A stretch of 63,836 nucleotides of DNA, the filler included, from Craspedostauros australis (lineage: Eukaryota), in the NCBI GenBank assembly GCA_030167865.1. It is 6 parts of 6 records of this genome, joined end to end, with 100 filler letters (N's around TTAATTAATTAA, not from the genome) between each part and the next. Parts side by side here need not be neighbours in the genome. Positions count along the whole stretch, not along the records: positions 51,970 to 57,602 come from JALAGF010004288.1; 5 more parts are not named here. One strand, written 5' to 3'. The notes under the pieces are model-generated. The model saw only the letters and a list, made by a program, of their open reading frames with translations. It was not told the origin of the DNA and ran no database searches. The position numbers were made by a program, and so were the translations under genes. How positions within the stretch are numbered: the first letter of the stretch is position 1; every line of letters starts with the position of its first letter. Positions 24,971 through 57,702 of this stretch are shown piece after piece.

Positions 24971-25070
24971 NNNNNNNNNNNNNNNNNNNNNNNNNNNNNN
25001 NNNNNNNNNNNNNNTTAATTAATTAANNNNNNNNNNNNNNNNNNNNNNNNNNNNNNNNNNNNNNNNNNNN
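24971..25070. other. Artificial contig linker
   Basis: N44-TTAATTAATTAA-N44, stops in all six frames. Confidence 0.99.
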
Positions 25071-28000
25071 CTGTCGGTTGGATGTCACTGCTACAATGTT
25101 CTGAATCATAACGGGATACTTGTAGAGTAGAGCAGAGTACTATTGTTACCATGTGGGGCACATCGTGCTTGTGCTGTGCGTCATCCTCGTCCGAAAGGAC
25201 ACTGATTCGTTGTTCCATCGAGTGCTTCGCGCATCTGCGTATGTTCGTAGAGTGAGTAGAGTATGTATATTCGTACTAATATGGGGTTGTGATTGGTTGC
25301 ATGGCACGTTGTGATACCGTGCCTTTACGATTGAGAATGTGAATGTTGGTGTAATTGTGATTGTTGTGCATATTGATAATGTGGTGGTGATGTACATCCT
25401 TTCCGTCACTTGGTTCGTTCATGGACAGCAGTCGCATCATCATGTAACCAGCGGTGCGCTGCCTCCTTCGACGTCCGCGTCGGATGAGACCAACATCGTC
25501 AATGACTCTTCGTCTTCATATTCGCTGATGTCACCATCCTGGAGGACCTGCTGGTAGGCGGATGATGGCGCAGTCCGGGATTGACGTCGGATGCCCTCCG
25601 ACTGAGATCGACGCATGGAGATGGGGCTGGACAGCACCGACATCAACGATGCCGTGATGGACGGTCGCCTCGGTTGCTGCGAATGTGCTTGCTGTTCATG
25701 ACGACGCGTGTAGTCTTCATCATCGGCACTGTCAACGAAGGGCGGCGGCTGGAATGGCAATGGAGGCAGTCCACTTGCTTGGTTGAAGGAGATCGCGGAC
25801 ATGACATCATTGGTCATCTCCATCGAAGCGGACCTTGATCTTGCTGCCATCCCCGACCGCGCTGCACCTGGCGTCACCGTGAGCGATGATGATCTTGATT
25901 GCAATTCCACCTCGGAGCTGCGCCTGTTGAATCTGCCGCCATGCTGCTGCTGCTGCTGTGTTCCCTGAGAGAACGTGCGTCTGAGTGGGATGGAGGGTAT
26001 CATGGGCGACATGGGCATCATGTTGAGAGCGGATTGCAGGAAGCTGGAGCGCGTCATCACGGGCTTGGTGTGGATGGGAGATGCCATGGATGCGGTTGCA
26101 GCGGCGGATGACTGCATGGCGCAGGATCTTCTCACAAGCAGACCTCCCATGATGAAGAAGACGTCCTCCGTGCTGCTATTTCTGCTGCTGGCGCTGTCAG
26201 CATCACTGTCCGAATCGTGATCGGTGCTGCCAGTGCTGCTGTTGCTTTGATTGTCGTTCTCGTTGTCGTTATCATTGTCATTATCGCTGTCAGTGTCGTT
26301 GCCGCTGTCGGAGAAGATGGTATCCGCGGTGTCCGACGATGTGTTGAGTGCAGTCTCCCGCCCATGCATTGCTCGAGGCTGCGCTGAGCTGTTGCCATCT
26401 GTTCCATCGTTGGCCGTGCCGGCCTCATGGATCACATCTATCGATCCCGATAGCTGCTTCGCATGAGGCACATCCACGGTCTTGCCACTGTCATGCGGGT
26501 TGCGCACGAGAAGCTCTGTGCGACATGCCGGGCAATCATCCTGACGCTGATCACACAGCCACAGCTGGATGCAGTCGACGTGGAAGACGTGTCGACAGCA
26601 CCATGACGGTGAAGACTCTTCCGTTGTGTTTGCATTTGCGCTTGCATCAATGTCTGAGCCAGCGCCTGTTGCTGTCGATCCCGATGTCGCTTTTGACTTC
26701 GATCGTGATCTCGTGCATGGCTTGTTGTTCTGATAGCTCCATGAGACGACGTCGTTCACTTGGAAGTCCTCCATGCAGATGATGCAGGTTGATTCCTCTT
26801 CCACATCGCTGTTGAGCATTTCATTGGTGAGGATGGGCACACAGAACGGGCTGGAGGTTGGTGGTGGCAGTGGTAGCTTTGATGCAGTTCTACCGTCCGT
26901 GTTGCTGTTGCTGTTACTGTTGTTGCGGGCGGTAGCGCTGGTCTGAGAATGCGACCCACCCTGCTCAATATCCATATCAGCATCTTCATCTTCATTCATG
27001 TCAAGGCCGCCTTTGGATTCGTAAGCCGCGCTGCTCGGGCGAGAGAGGGTGTTGGAAAGGTGGAATGAGTCCAGCACCTCCTGCACTGTCCAGTAGAAGT
27101 AACCGTTCGGTTCTTGCTTTTGGATGGTCTGTTGAAAGATGAGTGAGGATTTGGAGTGTTGGTGCGATGGCAGTGGCAGTGGCACGGGTGAGGAGGTGGA
27201 TGTATTGGCAGATGGCAATGCAATTGAGTACTCTAACATGCGCGTACATCATGGACGACGCGTGCAAGTGACAGCGACATAGACAGTGGCCATGCCTGTG
27301 ACGTTGACCACCACAGCGATTTCTGATTGGACTCACCGTTTCGTACATGTTGGCTCTCATCCACAGCTTGCGCTGCTCCGGAGTATCCTTCTTGATCTTC
27401 TGTCTGGCCTCCCGTTCCTCGCGGCGTCGCTCCCGCCTCTGCCTGCGCCTCTGGAGGTTTTCCTGAGCTCTCTGACGGATCTGCTCTCCTCTGCGCAGCT
27501 CTGGTGGAGGGATGGATGATCGTGAGCATCCCAGCATCATGAAGATGAGCGCAACGGCCAAAGCCGTGAGGAAGATGTCATCTGTAGTCATGGCTTTGGA
27601 GTGATGCCCGCCGTTGTTCCCATCGTCTGATGCTGAAGTGGAATTAGAGGTAGAATTGGAGATGGCATCGAGCGGATCTGTCAAAGACGTCAGGCCTGAA
27701 GAGATCGTTGTGGGAGGGAAGGTAGGGAAGGTGGCATCTGTCAACCCTTCGTCTGCAGAGCTGCTGATGCTGTTGCTCATACTGGGAGAGAAGGGGCCGT
27801 CTGCATCTCCATTCGCATCTTCAGATGAAAGAGGCACCACGTCGATCACGTCGATCTCGGAAGTTGTGATCTCCATCTTCAATCCTGTTCTGCCTATCTA
27901 ACTTTCTGTGTCTGCTCGTACTCGTTGCCTTGGCAGAGTATAGTTGTAGCACTAATGTGACTACTCTGTTCAACTCGAAGTGGCTCGTATCGTATTGGTT

Positions 28001-29641
28001 GGTCGTATGGTCCTCTGATCTGTTGCGCAGCCGAATTGTGTGAATTCGTGACCTTTGGGAGAGAGAATTACGAATACGGAGTGTACGAGCCTGTCGGTCT
28101 TGGAATCGGCAGATGCTTGTCCTCAAGTATCCGACGCAAAACTGATATCTGTGTTCCCGCTTTGTGAGTTCTTGGCTTCGCGCCTCCTGTCGATTTCTCT
28201 TCTATCGTGTTCAAGTGTGTGTTCGGTCGTGTTGGGCTGTGCCTTGCGCTTCTTCCTTGTGCTTCGATTTGCTGAGTTGTGATGCTCGCTTGTGGTGTTG
28301 TCATGCGTTGTGATGTGATGTGATGCGTTGTCGGAGATGGAACTCTTTGTTGGGAGCAGATCGCAAGTCCTGGAATACGAGTAGTTCGTACTTGACCGCT
28401 CTACTGCCACTCGATTCTGATGCCGTCGCTGATGTTGTCACTGCTGATGGTGACCTCTGCAGTGCTATGACCGGGTGCGGACAGGCCTCTTCTGCCTTCT
28501 GAGACTCTTCAACGGAAGATCCGATTGAGCGGAGGTGCTTTCCTGAGATGATGCCAGTGGCAGAGGTCAAGAACACCAGAGCAAAGGAACAACTTCCAAA
28601 TTTGGGAGCAACGAAGCGATCGTGTGGTTTGGTATCACGACTCTGTGTGGTGCTCATTGTCTCCCCTCAGTTTTCTTCCTCCACTTGTTTTTGCATTCCT
28701 TTTCACCCGCACCGCCCTCGTGTCTCTTCCGCTCATGTCACACCATTCGCTTCCAACAACCAGCCGTACCTCTCTCTGCACAATTCGCGCAATTCGCGCA
28801 ATTCACGCGCGCACACGCTCCACACACACGTCCAAGTGGGAAAGAGCGAAAATTGTTGGGACAGATCGCGCAGTAAAGTGGCAACAATACACACCAAAAA
28901 CACGGAAGCAGCAGATTCGTGGGATGTGCACGTTGTGAGCTTTCTCAGCGCTGTCGCCAGAGCGTTGGATTGTGTCTGACCGTCTTTTCCGAATTCTTGC
29001 TTCCGATGTCGCTGTCCGCACACCCAAACTATCGGACAACAGAGCATTTTCACACGTGACATCGAACAATTTGGCTAGACATCAATTTTTGATTGGAGGG
29101 AGAGATCGCGCCTGTCCATCGTGTTCCGCATGTGCTTGCGAGTGTGTCATGTCCCATGTGGCACTCATCCTAACAACATGACCAAATGAACATGTGACTC
29201 GCTAAGTCCCGACTTCCGTTGAGAGAGGAATACGGCAAGCCGAGCTTCTGTGACCACACAAAATTGCTCACCATATTTCTCACAACATCGCGTCACAAAA
29301 ACTGGAACATCCGTAACAACGACAACAAAGCTCCGTGCAAGGATACAAAATGGTGTTTCGCCATCGACGATGATGTGACGATCGTCAGTGCCAACATTGT
29401 GATCAGCAGGCGCATAGACAGCAACAGTAGCGGCGGCGGCATTGTTGCCGTCATGTACGAGTACACCATCACCATGCACTTTCTTGAGCACGGACTCGTG
29501 AGATCACTGCACACAATGAACATGAAACAGGCCGAGGACAGAGAATGATCGATGATGTCGATACCGTCAATGCGACAATGAAGCAAAGACCAGCACAAAA
29601 GCAACGATTCAACGCGCTCTATCCGTACCATGCACTGCCAT
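25071..29641. repeat. 4571-bp segment duplicated in inverted orientation at 41057-45627
   Basis: Mirrored ORF sets translate identically with coordinate sum 70698; the end sequences are reverse complements. Confidence 0.97.
25440..27876 (-). CDS. Single-pass membrane RING-H2 E3 ligase-like protein (copy 1); exons 27876-27337 and 27128-25440
   Basis: TM IFLTALAVALIFMMLGC; CIIC...CRHVFHVDCIQLW...CPAC; GTGAGT..CAG intron joins MYET|TIQK in frame. Confidence 0.88.
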
Positions 29642-40956: not shown

Positions 40957-41056
40957 NNNNNNNNNNNNNNNNNNNNNNNNNNNNNNNNNNNNNNNNNNNN
41001 TTAATTAATTAANNNNNNNNNNNNNNNNNNNNNNNNNNNNNNNNNNNNNNNNNNNN
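40957..41056. other. Artificial contig linker
   Basis: N-TTAATTAATTAA-N. Confidence 0.99.
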
Positions 41057-44000
41057 ATGGCAGTGCATGGTACGGATAGAGCGCGTTGAATCGTTGCTTT
41101 TGTGCTGGTCTTTGCTTCATTGTCGCATTGACGGTATCGACATCATCGATCATTCTCTGTCCTCGGCCTGTTTCATGTTCATTGTGTGCAGTGATCTCAC
41201 GAGTCCGTGCTCAAGAAAGTGCATGGTGATGGTGTACTCGTACATGACGGCAACAATGCCGCCGCCGCTACTGTTGCTGTCTATGCGCCTGCTGATCACA
41301 ATGTTGGCACTGACGATCGTCACATCATCGTCGATGGCGAAACACCATTTTGTATCCTTGCACGGAGCTTTGTTGTCGTTGTTACGGATGTTCCAGTTTT
41401 TGTGACGCGATGTTGTGAGAAATATGGTGAGCAATTTTGTGTGGTCACAGAAGCTCGGCTTGCCGTATTCCTCTCTCAACGGAAGTCGGGACTTAGCGAG
41501 TCACATGTTCATTTGGTCATGTTGTTAGGATGAGTGCCACATGGGACATGACACACTCGCAAGCACATGCGGAACACGATGGACAGGCGCGATCTCTCCC
41601 TCCAATCAAAAATTGATGTCTAGCCAAATTGTTCGATGTCACGTGTGAAAATGCTCTGTTGTCCGATAGTTTGGGTGTGCGGACAGCGACATCGGAAGCA
41701 AGAATTCGGAAAAGACGGTCAGACACAATCCAACGCTCTGGCGACAGCGCTGAGAAAGCTCACAACGTGCACATCCCACGAATCTGCTGCTTCCGTGTTT
41801 TTGGTGTGTATTGTTGCCACTTTACTGCGCGATCTGTCCCAACAATTTTCGCTCTTTCCCACTTGGACGTGTGTGTGGAGCGTGTGCGCGCGTGAATTGC
41901 GCGAATTGCGCGAATTGTGCAGAGAGAGGTACGGCTGGTTGTTGGAAGCGAATGGTGTGACATGAGCGGAAGAGACACGAGGGCGGTGCGGGTGAAAAGG
42001 AATGCAAAAACAAGTGGAGGAAGAAAACTGAGGGGAGACAATGAGCACCACACAGAGTCGTGATACCAAACCACACGATCGCTTCGTTGCTCCCAAATTT
42101 GGAAGTTGTTCCTTTGCTCTGGTGTTCTTGACCTCTGCCACTGGCATCATCTCAGGAAAGCACCTCCGCTCAATCGGATCTTCCGTTGAAGAGTCTCAGA
42201 AGGCAGAAGAGGCCTGTCCGCACCCGGTCATAGCACTGCAGAGGTCACCATCAGCAGTGACAACATCAGCGACGGCATCAGAATCGAGTGGCAGTAGAGC
42301 GGTCAAGTACGAACTACTCGTATTCCAGGACTTGCGATCTGCTCCCAACAAAGAGTTCCATCTCCGACAACGCATCACATCACATCACAACGCATGACAA
42401 CACCACAAGCGAGCATCACAACTCAGCAAATCGAAGCACAAGGAAGAAGCGCAAGGCACAGCCCAACACGACCGAACACACACTTGAACACGATAGAAGA
42501 GAAATCGACAGGAGGCGCGAAGCCAAGAACTCACAAAGCGGGAACACAGATATCAGTTTTGCGTCGGATACTTGAGGACAAGCATCTGCCGATTCCAAGA
42601 CCGACAGGCTCGTACACTCCGTATTCGTAATTCTCTCTCCCAAAGGTCACGAATTCACACAATTCGGCTGCGCAACAGATCAGAGGACCATACGACCAAC
42701 CAATACGATACGAGCCACTTCGAGTTGAACAGAGTAGTCACATTAGTGCTACAACTATACTCTGCCAAGGCAACGAGTACGAGCAGACACAGAAAGTTAG
42801 ATAGGCAGAACAGGATTGAAGATGGAGATCACAACTTCCGAGATCGACGTGATCGACGTGGTGCCTCTTTCATCTGAAGATGCGAATGGAGATGCAGACG
42901 GCCCCTTCTCTCCCAGTATGAGCAACAGCATCAGCAGCTCTGCAGACGAAGGGTTGACAGATGCCACCTTCCCTACCTTCCCTCCCACAACGATCTCTTC
43001 AGGCCTGACGTCTTTGACAGATCCGCTCGATGCCATCTCCAATTCTACCTCTAATTCCACTTCAGCATCAGACGATGGGAACAACGGCGGGCATCACTCC
43101 AAAGCCATGACTACAGATGACATCTTCCTCACGGCTTTGGCCGTTGCGCTCATCTTCATGATGCTGGGATGCTCACGATCATCCATCCCTCCACCAGAGC
43201 TGCGCAGAGGAGAGCAGATCCGTCAGAGAGCTCAGGAAAACCTCCAGAGGCGCAGGCAGAGGCGGGAGCGACGCCGCGAGGAACGGGAGGCCAGACAGAA
43301 GATCAAGAAGGATACTCCGGAGCAGCGCAAGCTGTGGATGAGAGCCAACATGTACGAAACGGTGAGTCCAATCAGAAATCGCTGTGGTGGTCAACGTCAC
43401 AGGCATGGCCACTGTCTATGTCGCTGTCACTTGCACGCGTCGTCCATGATGTACGCGCATGTTAGAGTACTCAATTGCATTGCCATCTGCCAATACATCC
43501 ACCTCCTCACCCGTGCCACTGCCACTGCCATCGCACCAACACTCCAAATCCTCACTCATCTTTCAACAGACCATCCAAAAGCAAGAACCGAACGGTTACT
43601 TCTACTGGACAGTGCAGGAGGTGCTGGACTCATTCCACCTTTCCAACACCCTCTCTCGCCCGAGCAGCGCGGCTTACGAATCCAAAGGCGGCCTTGACAT
43701 GAATGAAGATGAAGATGCTGATATGGATATTGAGCAGGGTGGGTCGCATTCTCAGACCAGCGCTACCGCCCGCAACAACAGTAACAGCAACAGCAACACG
43801 GACGGTAGAACTGCATCAAAGCTACCACTGCCACCACCAACCTCCAGCCCGTTCTGTGTGCCCATCCTCACCAATGAAATGCTCAACAGCGATGTGGAAG
43901 AGGAATCAACCTGCATCATCTGCATGGAGGACTTCCAAGTGAACGACGTCGTCTCATGGAGCTATCAGAACAACAAGCCATGCACGAGATCACGATCGAA

Positions 44001-45627
44001 GTCAAAAGCGACATCGGGATCGACAGCAACAGGCGCTGGCTCAGACATTGATGCAAGCGCAAATGCAAACACAACGGAAGAGTCTTCACCGTCATGGTGC
44101 TGTCGACACGTCTTCCACGTCGACTGCATCCAGCTGTGGCTGTGTGATCAGCGTCAGGATGATTGCCCGGCATGTCGCACAGAGCTTCTCGTGCGCAACC
44201 CGCATGACAGTGGCAAGACCGTGGATGTGCCTCATGCGAAGCAGCTATCGGGATCGATAGATGTGATCCATGAGGCCGGCACGGCCAACGATGGAACAGA
44301 TGGCAACAGCTCAGCGCAGCCTCGAGCAATGCATGGGCGGGAGACTGCACTCAACACATCGTCGGACACCGCGGATACCATCTTCTCCGACAGCGGCAAC
44401 GACACTGACAGCGATAATGACAATGATAACGACAACGAGAACGACAATCAAAGCAACAGCAGCACTGGCAGCACCGATCACGATTCGGACAGTGATGCTG
44501 ACAGCGCCAGCAGCAGAAATAGCAGCACGGAGGACGTCTTCTTCATCATGGGAGGTCTGCTTGTGAGAAGATCCTGCGCCATGCAGTCATCCGCCGCTGC
44601 AACCGCATCCATGGCATCTCCCATCCACACCAAGCCCGTGATGACGCGCTCCAGCTTCCTGCAATCCGCTCTCAACATGATGCCCATGTCGCCCATGATA
44701 CCCTCCATCCCACTCAGACGCACGTTCTCTCAGGGAACACAGCAGCAGCAGCAGCATGGCGGCAGATTCAACAGGCGCAGCTCCGAGGTGGAATTGCAAT
44801 CAAGATCATCATCGCTCACGGTGACGCCAGGTGCAGCGCGGTCGGGGATGGCAGCAAGATCAAGGTCCGCTTCGATGGAGATGACCAATGATGTCATGTC
44901 CGCGATCTCCTTCAACCAAGCAAGTGGACTGCCTCCATTGCCATTCCAGCCGCCGCCCTTCGTTGACAGTGCCGATGATGAAGACTACACGCGTCGTCAT
45001 GAACAGCAAGCACATTCGCAGCAACCGAGGCGACCGTCCATCACGGCATCGTTGATGTCGGTGCTGTCCAGCCCCATCTCCATGCGTCGATCTCAGTCGG
45101 AGGGCATCCGACGTCAATCCCGGACTGCGCCATCATCCGCCTACCAGCAGGTCCTCCAGGATGGTGACATCAGCGAATATGAAGACGAAGAGTCATTGAC
45201 GATGTTGGTCTCATCCGACGCGGACGTCGAAGGAGGCAGCGCACCGCTGGTTACATGATGATGCGACTGCTGTCCATGAACGAACCAAGTGACGGAAAGG
45301 ATGTACATCACCACCACATTATCAATATGCACAACAATCACAATTACACCAACATTCACATTCTCAATCGTAAAGGCACGGTATCACAACGTGCCATGCA
45401 ACCAATCACAACCCCATATTAGTACGAATATACATACTCTACTCACTCTACGAACATACGCAGATGCGCGAAGCACTCGATGGAACAACGAATCAGTGTC
45501 CTTTCGGACGAGGATGACGCACAGCACAAGCACGATGTGCCCCACATGGTAACAATAGTACTCTGCTCTACTCTACAAGTATCCCGTTATGATTCAGAAC
45601 ATTGTAGCAGTGACATCCAACCGACAG
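41057..45627. repeat. Inverted copy of 25071-29641
   Basis: Identical translated ORFs on the opposite strand. Confidence 0.97.
42822..45258 (+). CDS. Single-pass membrane RING-H2 E3 ligase-like protein (copy 2); exons 42822-43361 and 43570-45258
   Basis: Same as copy 1; intron 43362-43569 GTGAGT..TTTCAACAG. Confidence 0.88.
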
Positions 45628-46657: not shown

Positions 46658-46757
46658 NNNNNNNNNNNNNNNNNNNNNNNNNNNNNNNNNNNNNNNNNNN
46701 NTTAATTAATTAANNNNNNNNNNNNNNNNNNNNNNNNNNNNNNNNNNNNNNNNNNNN
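46658..46757. other. Artificial contig linker
   Basis: N-TTAATTAATTAA-N. Confidence 0.99.
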
Positions 46758-51869: not shown

Positions 51870-51969
51870 NNNNNNNNNNNNNNNNNNNNNNNNNNNNNNN
51901 NNNNNNNNNNNNNTTAATTAATTAANNNNNNNNNNNNNNNNNNNNNNNNNNNNNNNNNNNNNNNNNNNN
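51870..51969. other. Artificial contig linker
   Basis: N-TTAATTAATTAA-N. Confidence 0.99.
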
Positions 51970-54900
51970 CGAAGACTCACGGGAATGCGAGGATCCTGCG
52001 TCATCAGCAACAACGCACTGCGCTCAGAGCACTGGACCCTGCCCTTCTCCGATGTTCCCTCCATGCGAGCTGCCACATTCACCGTGTCACCGAACACTCC
52101 ATAGCGAGGATTCAACGTCCCCACCACGCTGCTCACCACTGGACCCGTGTGGAAGCCACCTCGGATCTTGATGTATCCCTTGCTCAGATCGTCCGAGTCC
52201 ACAGGGATGCGACTGGCGGCCTGGACTGCTTCCATGGCGAACTTCGCGATGCGCTTGACGTGATCATCGGGCTGCTTCTTGGCCAGGTTGGATGCGCACA
52301 TGTAGGCATCACCGATGGTCTCGATCTTGAACAGATCGTGCTTCTGGGTCAGCTCGTCGAATGCGCGGTACAGACGGTTGAGCATGGCGGATACCTTCAG
52401 GGGAGAGAAGGAAGAGGCGATGCTCGTGAAGCCCACGATGTCAGAGAAGAAGATGGTGACCTCATCGTGTGATTCTGGTTCTGGGTGTCCACCTCTCTCA
52501 AGCACTCTGGCGATGTGTGGTGGGAACATCTGCGAGAGGAGGTGGATTCCGTGAGCTTGTTGTTGCTGCTGCTGTTGCTGGTGGGTGAGAGGAGGCAGAG
52601 ATGATGCACCAATGCTGCTCGTTCCCGCGATGCTAGCAGCAGTGCCAACAGTGCCAGCAGCAGCAGGAACCACGAAGCCTGGTGCGGACTTCATGCCTTG
52701 AAGGGATCGTCTCAAACCTCCTCCGCTTCTCATACCCAAACCCATACTCCCCATGCTTCCCATGCCGAGGCTGCCCATGCCGACATTTCCACCGATGCCC
52801 ATGCCGGCCGTGGCAAGGCCTCCAACGTACGTCGGTGCCACCTTCTCGACAGTCAGCTCCTTCAGACGGTTGTCAAACTCGCCTGCTGTGGGACGCAACG
52901 AAGGATCCGCCACCATCAAGAACTTCATCAGCTTCGATACCTTCGGTGGACACGCCGGAGGCACTGGTGGTCGACGGTTGATCTTGATGTCGCACACCTG
53001 TTGGAGGACGTCGAGCGCATTCTCTCCTTCGTACGGATCTCGCCGACTGTACAGCTCGTACAGGATGATGCCCAGCGAGTACATGTCGGATGCTGCGGTG
53101 TTGGATGTCTCTCCCCTCAGCAGCTCGGGTGCCATGAAGAACGGTGTTCCCATCGCACCCTTCTTCTTGCGATGGGAGAAGCCGAAGTCTGCCACCTTGG
53201 CTCGGAACTTGCTGTCCACCAGCACGTTGGCTGACTTGAGATCGCCGTGGATGACCTGCGGATCGGCGGAGTGCAGGAAGCGCACGCCTGATGCGATGTC
53301 GCGCAGGAAGTTGAGGATGAGCTCACCATCCATCAGCATGGTCTCGTTGTGGAGGAGGTCGTACAATGATCCGTGGCTCATGTACTCCATGACGAGAGTC
53401 GGTTCTTGTCCTTTGGCGATGACAGCACCCATGACGGTGGTGATGCATGGATGTCTGAGCTTGGATAGGAGTCTCATCTCTTGTACGAACTCGTCCTTCT
53501 GTCTGCTGTACGAGCTGGATGATCCATCGTGGTTGTTGCGACGGAAGATGTTGAGGAATCCCTGTGAGAGAAAGCTGAAGCTGTTGCTGATGCTCCTTCC
53601 GATGCCGGCGTTGCTGCCACTGCCGCTACCACTGTTGCTCTTGAGGTTGTATTTGTACTTGCTTCCACTGTTGCTGTTGCTGTTGTTGTTGCTATTGGAT
53701 CCACGCTGCACGACAACAAGCCTCGAGTCGAGACCGGATGCGCGTCCCGAGAGCATGACGTTGTTCCGTCCATCGAATGTGCGCATTCCAGATCTCTTGC
53801 CGTTGATGACACGAGTAGATCCAGATCTAGAACCAGAACCAGATCTCGATCCTGCGATGTTGCCTGAGAATGTCGCGGATAGCTTGCGTGGCATGCTGGC
53901 GGCGGAAGTCTTGGCTGCGGGCGTTCTGGTCGATCTAGTGGATCGGCGCGAAGTCGAAGCCATGCCTGACTCCATCCCTGATGCTACAGCTGATCCCATA
54001 CTTGATCCCATCCCTGACACAGTGGCTGATGCTGTGGCTGATGCCATTCCGGAGGCCATGCCACTGGATCTGTTCTTGGGACGAATGCTCTCAATGTGAC
54101 TGGCCTCCAGATCTCTGTCGAGCTGCAGGTCGAGGGGTAGATCGCAGTCGCTGTCTGTCTCGATGTCTCGCTCATTGATCGTGGATGATGTGGCAGTGGT
54201 GAGCGCTGTATTGAAGGGACGATGCAAAGAACCATCGCCCGCCGAGCTGGATCGATGGTCATGGATATCACCAACGCTGCTCCTGATATTGCTGTTGGTG
54301 TGCGTTGTGCTTGTGGATGTGATGTCGACCATGACATTGCTCGACATGCCAGATGCGGAATGGAACATGCCCGATTTGAGAGTCTTGGCCTTGAGGGTTG
54401 TTGGTGCCGGTGCCGATGCCGATGCTGCTCCGTTCATCATGCCTGCACTCGATCCAATCGGCTCCACCTCGTCAGATGAGTCTGTTCCACCTTCCTGCGC
54501 ATTGCCGTTGCCATTACCGTTGGTGTGACTGCCAGAACCATTCCCATCATGATCGACACCAAACGATGCACGCACCAGATCTTCGCTGTGTGGTGCCAGC
54601 ACTCTCTTCACTGCCACCTGCGTACCTCGGTACTCCGCCAGAAGGACGAAGCCGAACGTGCCCTGACCAATGACCTGAGGAGGATCGGTGAACAACAGCT
54701 CCTCTGGCTTGACGGCCCACACAGAGTCGGCTTCTTGACGCTTCTTCTCGACGTACCACATCACCACGATGAGGAAGAGAAGGAACATGGGGACCAGGAT
54801 GGATGGGATGAGGATCGAGAGTAGCACGCATGTGCCGAAGAGATCGACTGCGTCGTCGTTGCAGACGCAAACACCATCGGCATCGGGTTGTCGTATGTCG

Positions 54901-56687
54901 CTGTAGTCAACAGAGCAGTCTCGCTCGATGATCTGGATGCGGAGCGGGCTTTCTGGTATCTGTTCTCCATCGAGGAAGATCTCGAGGATGAGGCTTCCGA
55001 CTTGTCGTGACATGACGGTGAAGTGATGGATGTTGCTGTTAACAACGCTGCCAATCGCAACGCTGCTGCCTGTGTCTGTGATGGCATCATTGTTGACATC
55101 ATTGTTGATGATGGTATGGAGCGGGATCTTGGTGACGGTGGCCTGTCGTGTGGATTGTCCTTCGTGCACAGTGACGGTGATGATGGCGTCGGTTCTGTTC
55201 TTGTTGTCGATGGCTTGCAGCGTGATGGGTATGGTTTGCTGCGATGTTCCGCAGACGGACATCTTCGGGCATCCGGCCGATGTGGCCGGGAGTGGCAGCG
55301 TTGGTGTTTGTTGTTGCGATGACGATGTTGGGAGGAGGGAGGACACGTCGACGTCGAATGCCTTGAGGCATGGGCTGCATATGCATGTGTAGTCTTCAGA
55401 TGGACACGACAAGCCCTCTGTTTGGCATCCACGGTCGACTTCCGCTCGTGATTTGCGGAAGAAGCCATCGGGGCACTGAATAGCCTCATAGAGCTGCGAT
55501 GGTCTGGGACATTGCCACACACCTGATACTGGATGCTTTTTCAAGAACCGGATCTCCTCTAGCATGCCACGCACAGGCGCATAGGTAAAGGATGTTCGGA
55601 AACCTGCGTATTTGCCGTTTTCCATCGCTCGCAGCGCCGTCTTGGAGACTTCGTAGGTGGAGTCGAAGCGCAAGTCTTCCGTTTCGACGAGCTTGGAAAG
55701 ATCCCTGCAACTGTTGACCGCCGTGATGTTGCCGTTCCCGATGCCCTCTTCGCATGCTCGGATGCGCAAGCCGATGTTGGAGTGATCCAGCAATGCGATC
55801 ATCGCAGACTGCACCTCCACATTGACCTGCGACGGCACGTGTGCCAATGCCGCCAAATTCCATTCTGGGTACAAAGGCGTCAACGCCGTGAAAGGAAACG
55901 GTTCTCCGTCGATGTTGAGTCCGTCTTGCTGATTCAGAATCTTGAACACGGACGGGTCGATCGGTTCACCAGTTTCGTCATCCTTCGTTCGTTCGATCTG
56001 ATCCGTGCGGATGAAGCCCACATCGAAGATGCCCTTCTTCACCCCGTTCACGATTTTGCCTTGGTTGCTCGTGAAAACGACCTGTTTTGGATCTTGGATG
56101 TATGACAGCTTCGCGACTTGCAATTCGCGGAACTGCATCTGCCCAGCTCCGAAGGCAGAAACGGAGGCTGCTGCAATGGTCTTGTTTCGCAGATCTTGCA
56201 GCGTGTTGATCCTGTCGTTATCTGCTCTGACAGCGACGACGCCGCCGAATTTGGATAAGATGTATTCCTCTCCGTTGACGAACCGCTTGGATATGTGAGA
56301 CACCAGGCTCTCTGTTCCAAACTCAGCCTCCAGGCAGGTGGATGCACTTGGGTTGACGTAGGTAAAATCGATGGACGCCGCTGGCTGCGTTGCGTCGAAC
56401 ATACCCTCGAACCCCAGCGCGACCATTTCGAAGGAGATGGGAGGATCGAAACGCTGTCCAACCGTCTGCGTGAGGTACTCCGAAAAGGTGACATTGTGAC
56501 GTTGGAAGGCGTTGTCGACGCCTGTGATGGCCAGCACGCCGATGGTGTACTTGGATTTGTACGTGTGGTTGCGATGCTTTGGAAGACCGTGAGAAGCAGC
56601 GCACTGCTCGTCGGCGGTTGTCTCCAATGTCGCAGCGCCCAAGGCGAGCAAGCCGAGAGCAACAGCATGAGTCGAGAAACCTCTCAT
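51970..56687 (-). CDS. Receptor-type kinase/guanylate-cyclase-like protein with extracellular phosphonate/phosphate-type periplasmic-binding domain (3' end truncated)
   Basis: Signal peptide; TIGVLA..DFTYVNPS..FGGVVAVRAD..DVGFIRTD..TPLYPEWNLAAL; TM; GQGTFG, VAVK, HGDLKSANVLV, DFG, GTPFFMAPE; TIFFSDIVGFT, KIETIGDAYM, FGDTVNVAARME. Confidence 0.93.
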
Positions 56688-57602
56688 TGTCGAAGTATCG
56701 TCGTCGTTGTGGAGGCTGCTTGGCTTGGCTTAGGTTTTTGTGGGATGTTGATTGTGGTCTCGGAGCTGTCTTTGTGATGAACTCTTTGTGATCGTAGCTA
56801 ATACGTGGACGGTACCGTATGAGTATGCGTGTATGTAGCTACGTGTGTTGATTCAGTGTCGTCTGCACTTTGTGGTGGTTGTAGCTTGCGATGGTTGCTT
56901 CGCCAGCTTCGCATCAGGCTGGTCACCCCTGTGTTGGCGCCTCTCTGGGTTGGTGTTTTGTGGGGGCTCCAGCAGCTTGTTGGTGAGTTGGATGCTCTGT
57001 GTGTGTCATTCCTTTTCTTCGTGTTTGCGCTGCCTTTGCGAGCAGCGCTATTTTTATCACTTCCCCCTGGTGACATTTCCTCGCGTTTCCCATTTCGGTG
57101 ATGTCGCGAATAGCGCAACAAATATCATTTGTATGGAACCTGGCTCACAAGAGATAGAGGGCGTTTTGACCGAATATGACCCCTTTTACAGTTCGTGTTG
57201 CCCAATTCGGTTTATTTGTGGACAACAGCGACTATTCTAATAGTGCGCAGTACAATGGTCATTCAAGACAGAAATCAAGGACCATGAAGACTTCGAACAA
57301 GGGAAGCGCGGTAAATACGTTTTCGGCGTCGTTTTCCGATGGGACTCCATTGGTAGTCCAAGTAGTCATCGTATAACATGTTCACAATCTAGAAGGTACT
57401 CCCATAGACAGTTCATCGACGTAGTGTGAACATGGTATTACGGTTGGTCACTAGTTATGTTATGTTGGTTGTTCGTGCTGCATGGGACTCGCTCCACTCT
57501 TACTCAGTCTGTGTGGTTTCGTCCCCCTCACTCTTGAGGCTCGCCGATGGCAGGTTGACCTCCTCCTGGCCGTCGCTGTCTGACTCGCAGTCAATCTTAA
57601 TC

Positions 57603-57702
57603 NNNNNNNNNNNNNNNNNNNNNNNNNNNNNNNNNNNNNNNNNNNNTTAATTAATTAANNNNNNNNNNNNNNNNNNNNNNNNNNNNNNNNNNNNNNNNNN
57701 NN
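57603..57702. other. Artificial contig linker
   Basis: N-TTAATTAATTAA-N. Confidence 0.99.

Follow-up and report, generated by a model that had tools for sequence, protein, structure and literature searches.

What would the large receptor predicted at one locus of the diatom Craspedostauros australis sense, and by which route would it pass the signal into the cell? The locus lies in a stretch of 63,836 nucleotides from assembly GCA_030167865.1 (the window), where a long open reading frame (ORF) on the minus strand, here called gene A, encodes a signal-like N-terminus, one transmembrane (TM) helix, a kinase and a class III cyclase, the order of a receptor guanylyl cyclase (GC). Sequence comparison makes it probable that gene A is a single-pass receptor GC with a likely active Ser/Thr kinase and an extracellular head of the type of the bacterial sensors TtrS and ThsS, which likely closes on a small anion, and that the body below this head was likely gene-converted from a neighboring gene, gene B.

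The ORF starts with an ATG at position 56687 and runs to 51972 over 1572 codons, uninterrupted by a stop. Judged by this open frame and by colinear homologues, gene A would be intronless. Pfam searches identified Phosphonate-bd (residues 104-299, E 1.9e-17), a kinase (1061-1270, E 3.7e-44) and Guanylate_cyc (1404-1564, E 2.7e-46). The motifs VAVK, HGDLKSAN, DFG and APE were located at residues 691, 1147, 1167 and 1186, and LEIFLDGEQIPESPLRIQI at residue 568; 19-residue segments with a hydropathy above 1.7 started at residues 612-630 only. An earlier interpretation of this DNA (the sequence-only reading) had described an intronless ORF with a signal peptide, a type-2 periplasmic-binding protein (PBP) domain, Cys-rich segments, a filamin/Ig-like end, one TM helix, a kinase and a class III cyclase, and this order was confirmed by Pfam, motifs, hydropathy and structural models. 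The end that it had placed at 51970 had to be abandoned: this is the end of contig C4288 (JALAGF010004288.1, positions 51970-57602), where the ORF runs without a stop into an N/TTAATTAATTAA spacer. The missing ∼18 C-terminal residues, including a KGKG motif, form the start of contig C4289, a join that we infer from the overlap of the contigs.

PDB sequence searches with the ectodomain or the head profile returned nothing informative, so that the fold assignment required a structural model. The AlphaFold2 model of residues 40-619, based on a 65-row alignment, had a pLDDT of 90.9 and its best Foldseek rows were PtxB, XAC2383, ArrX, PhnD, HtxB and AioX. With VIA-align, residues 44-383 matched XAC2383 with a Z-score of 25.2 (rmsd 2.1 Å, 257 residues), followed by ArrX (24.2) and PtxB (23.7). 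In the models the head is a type-2 PBP fold and the stalk a filamin Ig domain; the former had been put forward in the sequence-only reading for checking by AlphaFold and Foldseek. The domain itself was thereby upheld, and its proposed end at ∼55790 was moved: since a helical insertion sits within the fold, the fold reaches ∼residue 383 (55540). The filamin/Ig-like end of the stalk was equally recovered in a separate model (pLDDT 85.0), of which the best 16 matches were all filamin-type, with a top Z-score of 12.7 and an rmsd of 2.0 Å over 91 residues; the homologue P0362 matched PF00630 with a sub-cut-off E of 2.4e-5. Matches to bacterial PF12974 clusters in the ESM Atlas were all below 0.9 and served as a lead only, and a predicted homodimer of the head scored 0.47 versus 0.59 for one control.

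By sequence, the head of gene A most resembles the TtrS/ThsS type rather than a phosphonate carrier. It matched the NCBIfam TtrS model NF040750 over model positions 5-238 with an E of 7.6e-14, and the PhnD model TIGR01098 with an E of 0.0097 and 15.4 bits, below the cut-off of 112.05. A profile built from eukaryote-type heads only gave an annotated TtrS 51.4 bits and E. coli PhnD -1.4 bits. TtrS is described as sensing tetrathionate and ThsS as sensing thiosulfate via a PF12974 domain, with direct binding inferred (PMC5408782, PMC11293645). R55, N112, R227, T228 and YPEW were conserved in 145 eukaryote-type heads (homologue rows covering at least 85% of the head, minus three bacterial ones; most were classed by similarity) and in 116 bacterial heads (from 119 sensor heads, three being left out for an absent anchor motif); for R227 the conservation was 96% and 97%, respectively.

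In the kinase, the G-loop, β3 Lys, αC Glu, HxDxKxxN, DFG and APE are all intact, in agreement with the earlier statement that VAVK, HGDLKSAN, DFG and APE are unbroken; human NPR1 has HGN where gene A has HGD. In the family alignment of 66 rows, where rows A and B are identical in kinase and cyclase and hence counted twice, the catalytic Asp was kept in 65, the αC Glu in 65, the APE Glu in 66 and the DFG Asp in 61; the catalytic Asp, Lys and Asn, the αC Glu and the APE Glu each occurred in 63-66 rows. In the PDB, NPR1 matched the intracellular part best (E 5.9e-55), and the top kinase-only match was CTR1. Gene A thus likely carries an active, non-RD, TKL/Raf-like Ser/Thr kinase. A 367-residue low-complexity insert between VAVK and αC had been overlooked in the sequence-only reading; the tandem neighbor that shares the body was not visible to it.

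The catalytic set of the cyclase is kept: the metal Asps D1416 and D1460 (40/41 and 41/41 family rows), N1537, R1541 and the guanine-specifying pair E1456/G1530. The same E/G combination is described for Cya2, a guanylyl cyclase (PMC4215837). The cyclic nucleotide output proposed earlier can be narrowed to cGMP as the likely product. Kinase and cyclase are separated by ∼104 low-complexity residues in gene A and by 22-37 residues in 38 of 41 family rows; with such a linker, coupling would more likely proceed via dimer geometry or phosphorylation than via a rigid helix.

The body of gene A occurs more than once in the assembly. Contig C4289 opens with the same body, the C-terminal 18 residues and a stop, followed by 1.8 kb and then by gene B, which has a different head and the same body; contig C4290 starts with the same body followed by another tail. 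The simplest path would place A, the 1.8 kb and B in tandem. The heads of A and B are 54% identical, and their bodies near-identical. In the 335 separately assembled bases upstream of the repeated part, A and B differ by 9 substitutions and one 12-base indel; their tails differ at 3 positions within the final 56 coding bases (a V/I change, TAA versus TGA), and past the stop they are unrelated. At fourfold sites, A and B differ at 40/65 and 19/26 positions in the head but at 2/61 in the part of the stalk that was assembled separately; the difference between B and a third paralogue, C, stays at 0.44-0.57 along the whole length. The informative sites switch from B=C to A=B at ∼codon 437. In a careful tree of 22 heads, B and C were paired with a support of 100/100 and an AU test rejected A+B (p-AU 0.00024); the pair had been named before this tree, after the identity table and quick trees. 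Trees of the kinase and of the cyclase group A with B. The shared tract extends from the Cys module to the stop codon and has unrelated sequence on either side, a pattern better explained by conversion of an older paralogue, A, with B as the donor than by a fresh duplication; the body of A was likely copied from its tandem neighbor in this way. High mitotic recombination has been reported in diatoms between homologues, not between paralogues (bioRxiv 10.1101/2020.11.08.373134).

Under the favored reading of a receptor GC, ligand binding would close the two lobes of the head, and the closure signal would travel through the Cys/Ig stalk and the TM helix within a dimer. A dimeric receptor is proposed because class III cyclases act as dimers. 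The non-RD kinase would be switched on and phosphorylate its own Ser-rich loop or partners, and the paired cyclases would produce cGMP; genes A and B would provide two inputs to one output. As to the ligand, an oxyanion other than a sulfur oxyanion, or an organic anion, has nearly an even chance. Our best single guess, a tentative one, is a sulfur oxyanion, for example thiosulfate or tetrathionate. A head that takes no small ligand is unlikely, and phosphonate or phosphate very improbable.

Several observations weigh against parts of this reading. The ligand guess is drawn from kinship only, and the known ligands within PF12974 range from phosphite, arsenite and sulfate or arsenate to ATP and even sterol (PMC10942540, PMC8050422). 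All four bacterial TtrS-type loci examined adjoin sulfur-related genes (ttrBC; rhodanese; two SoxA/TsdA-domain cytochromes), which speaks for a sulfur compound, but the four were chosen from the top plasmid matches of a TtrS-like kinase and are a non-random sample. TtrS has no RTD motif and is placed, together with three further sensors, outside the eukaryotic clade. Position 55 is Arg in 72% of the eukaryote-type and 94% of the bacterial heads but Thr in gene A, so that its pocket may have changed. The second specificity residue of the cyclase varies among 41 rows (G 19, T 12, S 7, C 3), so that some use of ATP is possible. The tandem order of A and B rests on contig overlaps, not on long reads, and since 3074 of the ∼3400 shared bases are one collapsed repeat, the 100% identity of these bases carries no independent weight.

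Four other explanations were weighed against the favored one. The head could belong to a phosphate, phosphite or phosphonate sensor that signals phosphorus supply via cGMP, in line with its PF12974 match, with PtxB and PhnD among the top fold matches, and with two lobes and a glycine-rich helix start that could still hold an oxyanion. PhnD and PtxB bind ligand oxygens through an STS-H motif (PMC5700983), but in the profile alignment these positions are A178-F179-G180 and Q209 in gene A, the AFG at the helix start being common to gene A and TtrS. STS-H occurred in 0 of the 145 eukaryote-type heads, of which 81 have GLG-Q instead; the identity to solved PtxB and PhnD is 11-17%, and the TIGR01098 score lies far under its cut-off. 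The phosphonate/phosphate assignment of the sequence-only reading was given up on these grounds and on the stronger TtrS match, and a phosphorus sensor appears very improbable. The head might instead have lost small-molecule binding and act as a docking or dimerization module for a peptide, a pheromone or a partner protein, a role that the flytrap ectodomain has in the natriuretic-peptide receptors of animals. Gene A and its two closest paralogues have indeed lost Arg55 and gained Arg63/His64, and cGMP genes of pennate diatoms respond to sex pheromone (PMC8027222, PMC5485032). The cleft-type residues R227, T228 and N112 and an SxxG helix start are, however, conserved from bacteria to diatoms, and the described pheromone-induced genes are fusions of GC and phosphodiesterase or a soluble cyclase, a different architecture; we regard the docking module as unlikely.

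The two remaining explanations concern the body. A pseudokinase scaffold split by the 367-residue insert, resembling that of animal receptor GCs and with an allosteric ATP site, would account for the very long β3-αC insert, the short activation loop, the non-RD type and the likeness to NPR1. Such an insert, of 64-393 residues, was nevertheless present in 46/46 rows in which both anchors were found (out of 66), while the catalytic residues are retained as given above. Their conservation despite a family-wide insert is what retained catalysis predicts, and the scaffold is a minority prospect at best. The shared body might also be an assembly artefact without any conversion, with head A in truth joined to a separate, diverged body or with A and B as two haplotypes, since the same 3074 bp recur letter for letter at the contig ends of C4288, C4289 (twice) and C4290. 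Against this, the 335 separately assembled bases are nearly the same in A and B and are accompanied by two distinct downstream tails; a genome DNA search with the 3' end matched these contigs and paralogue C only; heads of 54% identity are not alleles; and C4289 alone spans body, intergenic spacer, head B and body. An artefact is therefore rather improbable, and gene conversion into a receptor GC remains the reading we adopt.

Gene A belongs to a widespread family. Similar architectures had been anticipated in other diatoms, and indeed 35 of the 66 proteins found in the homologue search join head, kinase and cyclase by precomputed Pfam (2 of these also a phosphodiesterase); histidine-kinase domains occurred in 14 eukaryote-type rows (2 bacterial in addition). 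The named eukaryotic homologues were from diatoms (Seminavis, Nitzschia, Cylindrotheca, Amphora and Bacillariaceae). A profile-free search of 1.84 billion representatives gave 163 matches at E≤1e-30 and 1854 at 1e-10; by Pfam, 6 of 32 picked members join the head to a class C G protein-coupled receptor (GPCR) seven-TM domain, and among 20 members that were looked up, those with a name came from Paulinella, Choanoeca flexa, a pedinophyte, Amorphochlora, Cymbomonas and diatoms. In other algae and in protists, this head is also fused to class C GPCRs and to histidine kinases. The phylogeny against bacterial PBP sensors that had been suggested earlier was realized in part as a quick tree of 58 heads, with relatives of one protein and four plasmid loci as bacterial rows: 30 eukaryote-type rows lay on one side of a branch with a support of 99, TtrS lay outside the eukaryotic clade, and a bacterial donor was not identified among these rows. 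Four Paulinella rows stood apart among the bacterial rows, and the Choanoeca row fell within the diatom-type rows on a long branch; transfer, contamination and long-branch error are each possible causes. When P0379, the nearest bacterial match, was used in a genome scan, only its own 2.4 kb contig was hit.

Within its own genome, eight heads were found, on kinase plus cyclase, on kinase plus histidine kinase plus two receivers, or on degenerate cyclases. In the paralogue L012 (G000:C3431:28500-38000), a single chain combines the same head, without an Ig stalk, with a Ser/Thr kinase, a histidine kinase and two receivers. The paralogues L013 (C4504) and L015 (C3587) have broken kinase frames, probably because of introns, and cyclases that by eye are without catalytic residues; these are possibly regulatory or dead partners. 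L014 (C3503) carries head F, which is ∼80% identical to head G of L015 and whose contig-end 18 codons are identical to G; a separate kinase body for head F was not found, and F and G are possibly a second shared-body pair. Elsewhere, P0139, P0167, P0185 and P0193 of Paulinella micropora are class C GPCR-like, carry 4 to 8 such heads in tandem and group separately from the remaining eukaryotic heads; P0187 of Choanoeca flexa has the full layout of head, stalk, TM helix, kinase and cyclase with a classic E/C cyclase; and P0233 and P0248 of cyanobacteria have a related bacterial head on chemoreceptors (PF00015). A paper on diatom GPCRs describes type-1 PBP heads, and phosphonate is unmentioned in the available part of its text (PMC3727952). 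A literature search with partial coverage and without supplements found nothing describing a eukaryotic receptor family with a TtrS-like head. It is conceivable, although we rate the whole scenario as unlikely, that a bacterial sensor domain of the thiosulfate/tetrathionate type was acquired by algae and other protists and made into a class of eukaryotic receptors by being placed on kinase-cyclases, histidine kinases and class C GPCRs, and that diatoms sense sulfur oxyanions of sediment bacteria via cGMP and reshuffle heads on a common body by gene conversion.

The coordinates of the features of gene A are listed in Table 1. The window consists of separate contigs with N-TTAATTAATTAA-N spacers at 24971-25070, 40957-41056, 46658-46757, 51870-51969 and 57603-57702; since these contigs are unlinked, genes on either side of a spacer are not neighbors, and ORFs that touch a spacer are cut. 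Two contig starts, at 41057-45627 and 25071-29641, contain an exact inverted copy of 4571 bp, which is probably another collapsed repeat and carries an ORF at 43450-45258 (+) with a RING-finger-like motif by eye.

Table 1. Features of gene A, with window positions and the basis of each assignment.
Feature	Position	Strand	Basis
Predicted signal peptide, residues ∼1-25	56613..56687	-	Hydrophobic stretch ∼6-21, 11-residue hydropathy up to 2.35
Type-2 PBP head, TtrS/ThsS sensor type, residues 44-383, helical insertion ∼300-358	55539..56558	-	PF12974; NF040750; fold matches
Cys-rich module, residues 393-441	55365..55511	-	C393, 405, 421, 428, 435, 437, 440; invariant in 65-row alignment
Filamin-type Ig domain, residues 443-588, two low-confidence loops	54924..55361	-	Fold matches
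Juxtamembrane Cys-rich module, residues 589-620	54828..54923	-	C591, 607, 609, 620; two invariant in 48 rows
Single TM helix, ∼621-645	54753..54827	-	Hydropathy peak 2.89 at 625-643
Kinase N-lobe start, GQGTFG loop and VAVK, residues 668-695	54603..54686	-	Motif positions
367-residue Ser/Gly-rich insert, β3 to αC	53502..54602	-	22% Ser, 7% Thr
Kinase αC and C-lobe, non-RD, TKL/Raf-like	52848..53501	-	E1070, HGDLKSAN, DFG, APE
Kinase-cyclase linker, ∼104 residues, Gly/Met/Ser and poly-Gln	52536..52847	-	Low-complexity composition
Class III cyclase, guanylyl-type, cut by contig end	51972..52535	-	D1416, D1460, E1456, G1530, N1537, R1541
Tract common to genes A and B (B on C4289)	51970..55379	-	55044-55378 separately assembled, ∼97% identical; 51970-55043 (3074 bp) collapsed repeat, three contigs

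The architecture of head, kinase and cyclase is common and already present in databases under automatic names; what is new is the link to TtrS and the probable head/body swap in A and B, a natural experiment with one body and two heads. As the head is predicted to be soluble and well folded and has relatives of known ligand, and as reporter assays are available, the question of the ligand is directly testable. cGMP signaling is prominent in the sex and stress responses of diatoms, and the ligand of their receptor cyclases is unnamed in the available parts of those sources (PMC7335047, PMC8027222). In Seminavis robusta, P0002 and P0018, auto-named 'Receptor-type guanylate cyclase gcy', and their relatives have the same architecture with ectodomains 44-49% identical to that of gene A. 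Cyclases are among the tandem-expanded families described for this species, and head, ligand and head/body exchange are undescribed in the accessible text of that paper (PMC7335047). The receptor cyclases of Acanthamoeba and giant viruses combine an extracellular receptor domain and one TM helix with a Ser/Thr kinase fused to a cyclase, the cyclase lying between two kinases (PMC4053784), whereas gene A has one kinase, and both tails stop 18 codons past the contig end, a linkage taken from the overlap.

TtrS/ThsS, the nearest named relatives of the head over its whole length, likewise place the sensor outside one membrane anchor. The output of gene A is, in contrast, a eukaryotic kinase and a cyclase, HisKA and HATPase being absent, and its head has disulfide-type Cys and a helical insert and is without Arg55. 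PhnD, PtxB, HtxB, ArrX, AioX and XAC2383 have the same fold (Z 21-25, 10-17% identity), but are free binding proteins, while gene A is a fused receptor without STS-H. With animal receptor GCs (NPR1/GC-A and GC-C) gene A shares the order of ectodomain, one TM helix, kinase-like domain and guanylyl cyclase. The ectodomain of natriuretic-peptide receptors is a flytrap fold, whereas gene A has a type-2 PBP head on a Cys/filamin stalk; it further differs by HGD in place of HGN, by the long kinase insert and by a Gly where GC-A has Cys. Animal receptor GCs have a short conserved helical linker between kinase and cyclase, in contrast to the long low-complexity one of gene A. A receptor cyclase with an intact kinase may bear on the origin of the animal pseudokinase version. 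Gene A likely works like an animal receptor GC, but departs from it in the kinase, which does not look like a pseudokinase, and in the linker.

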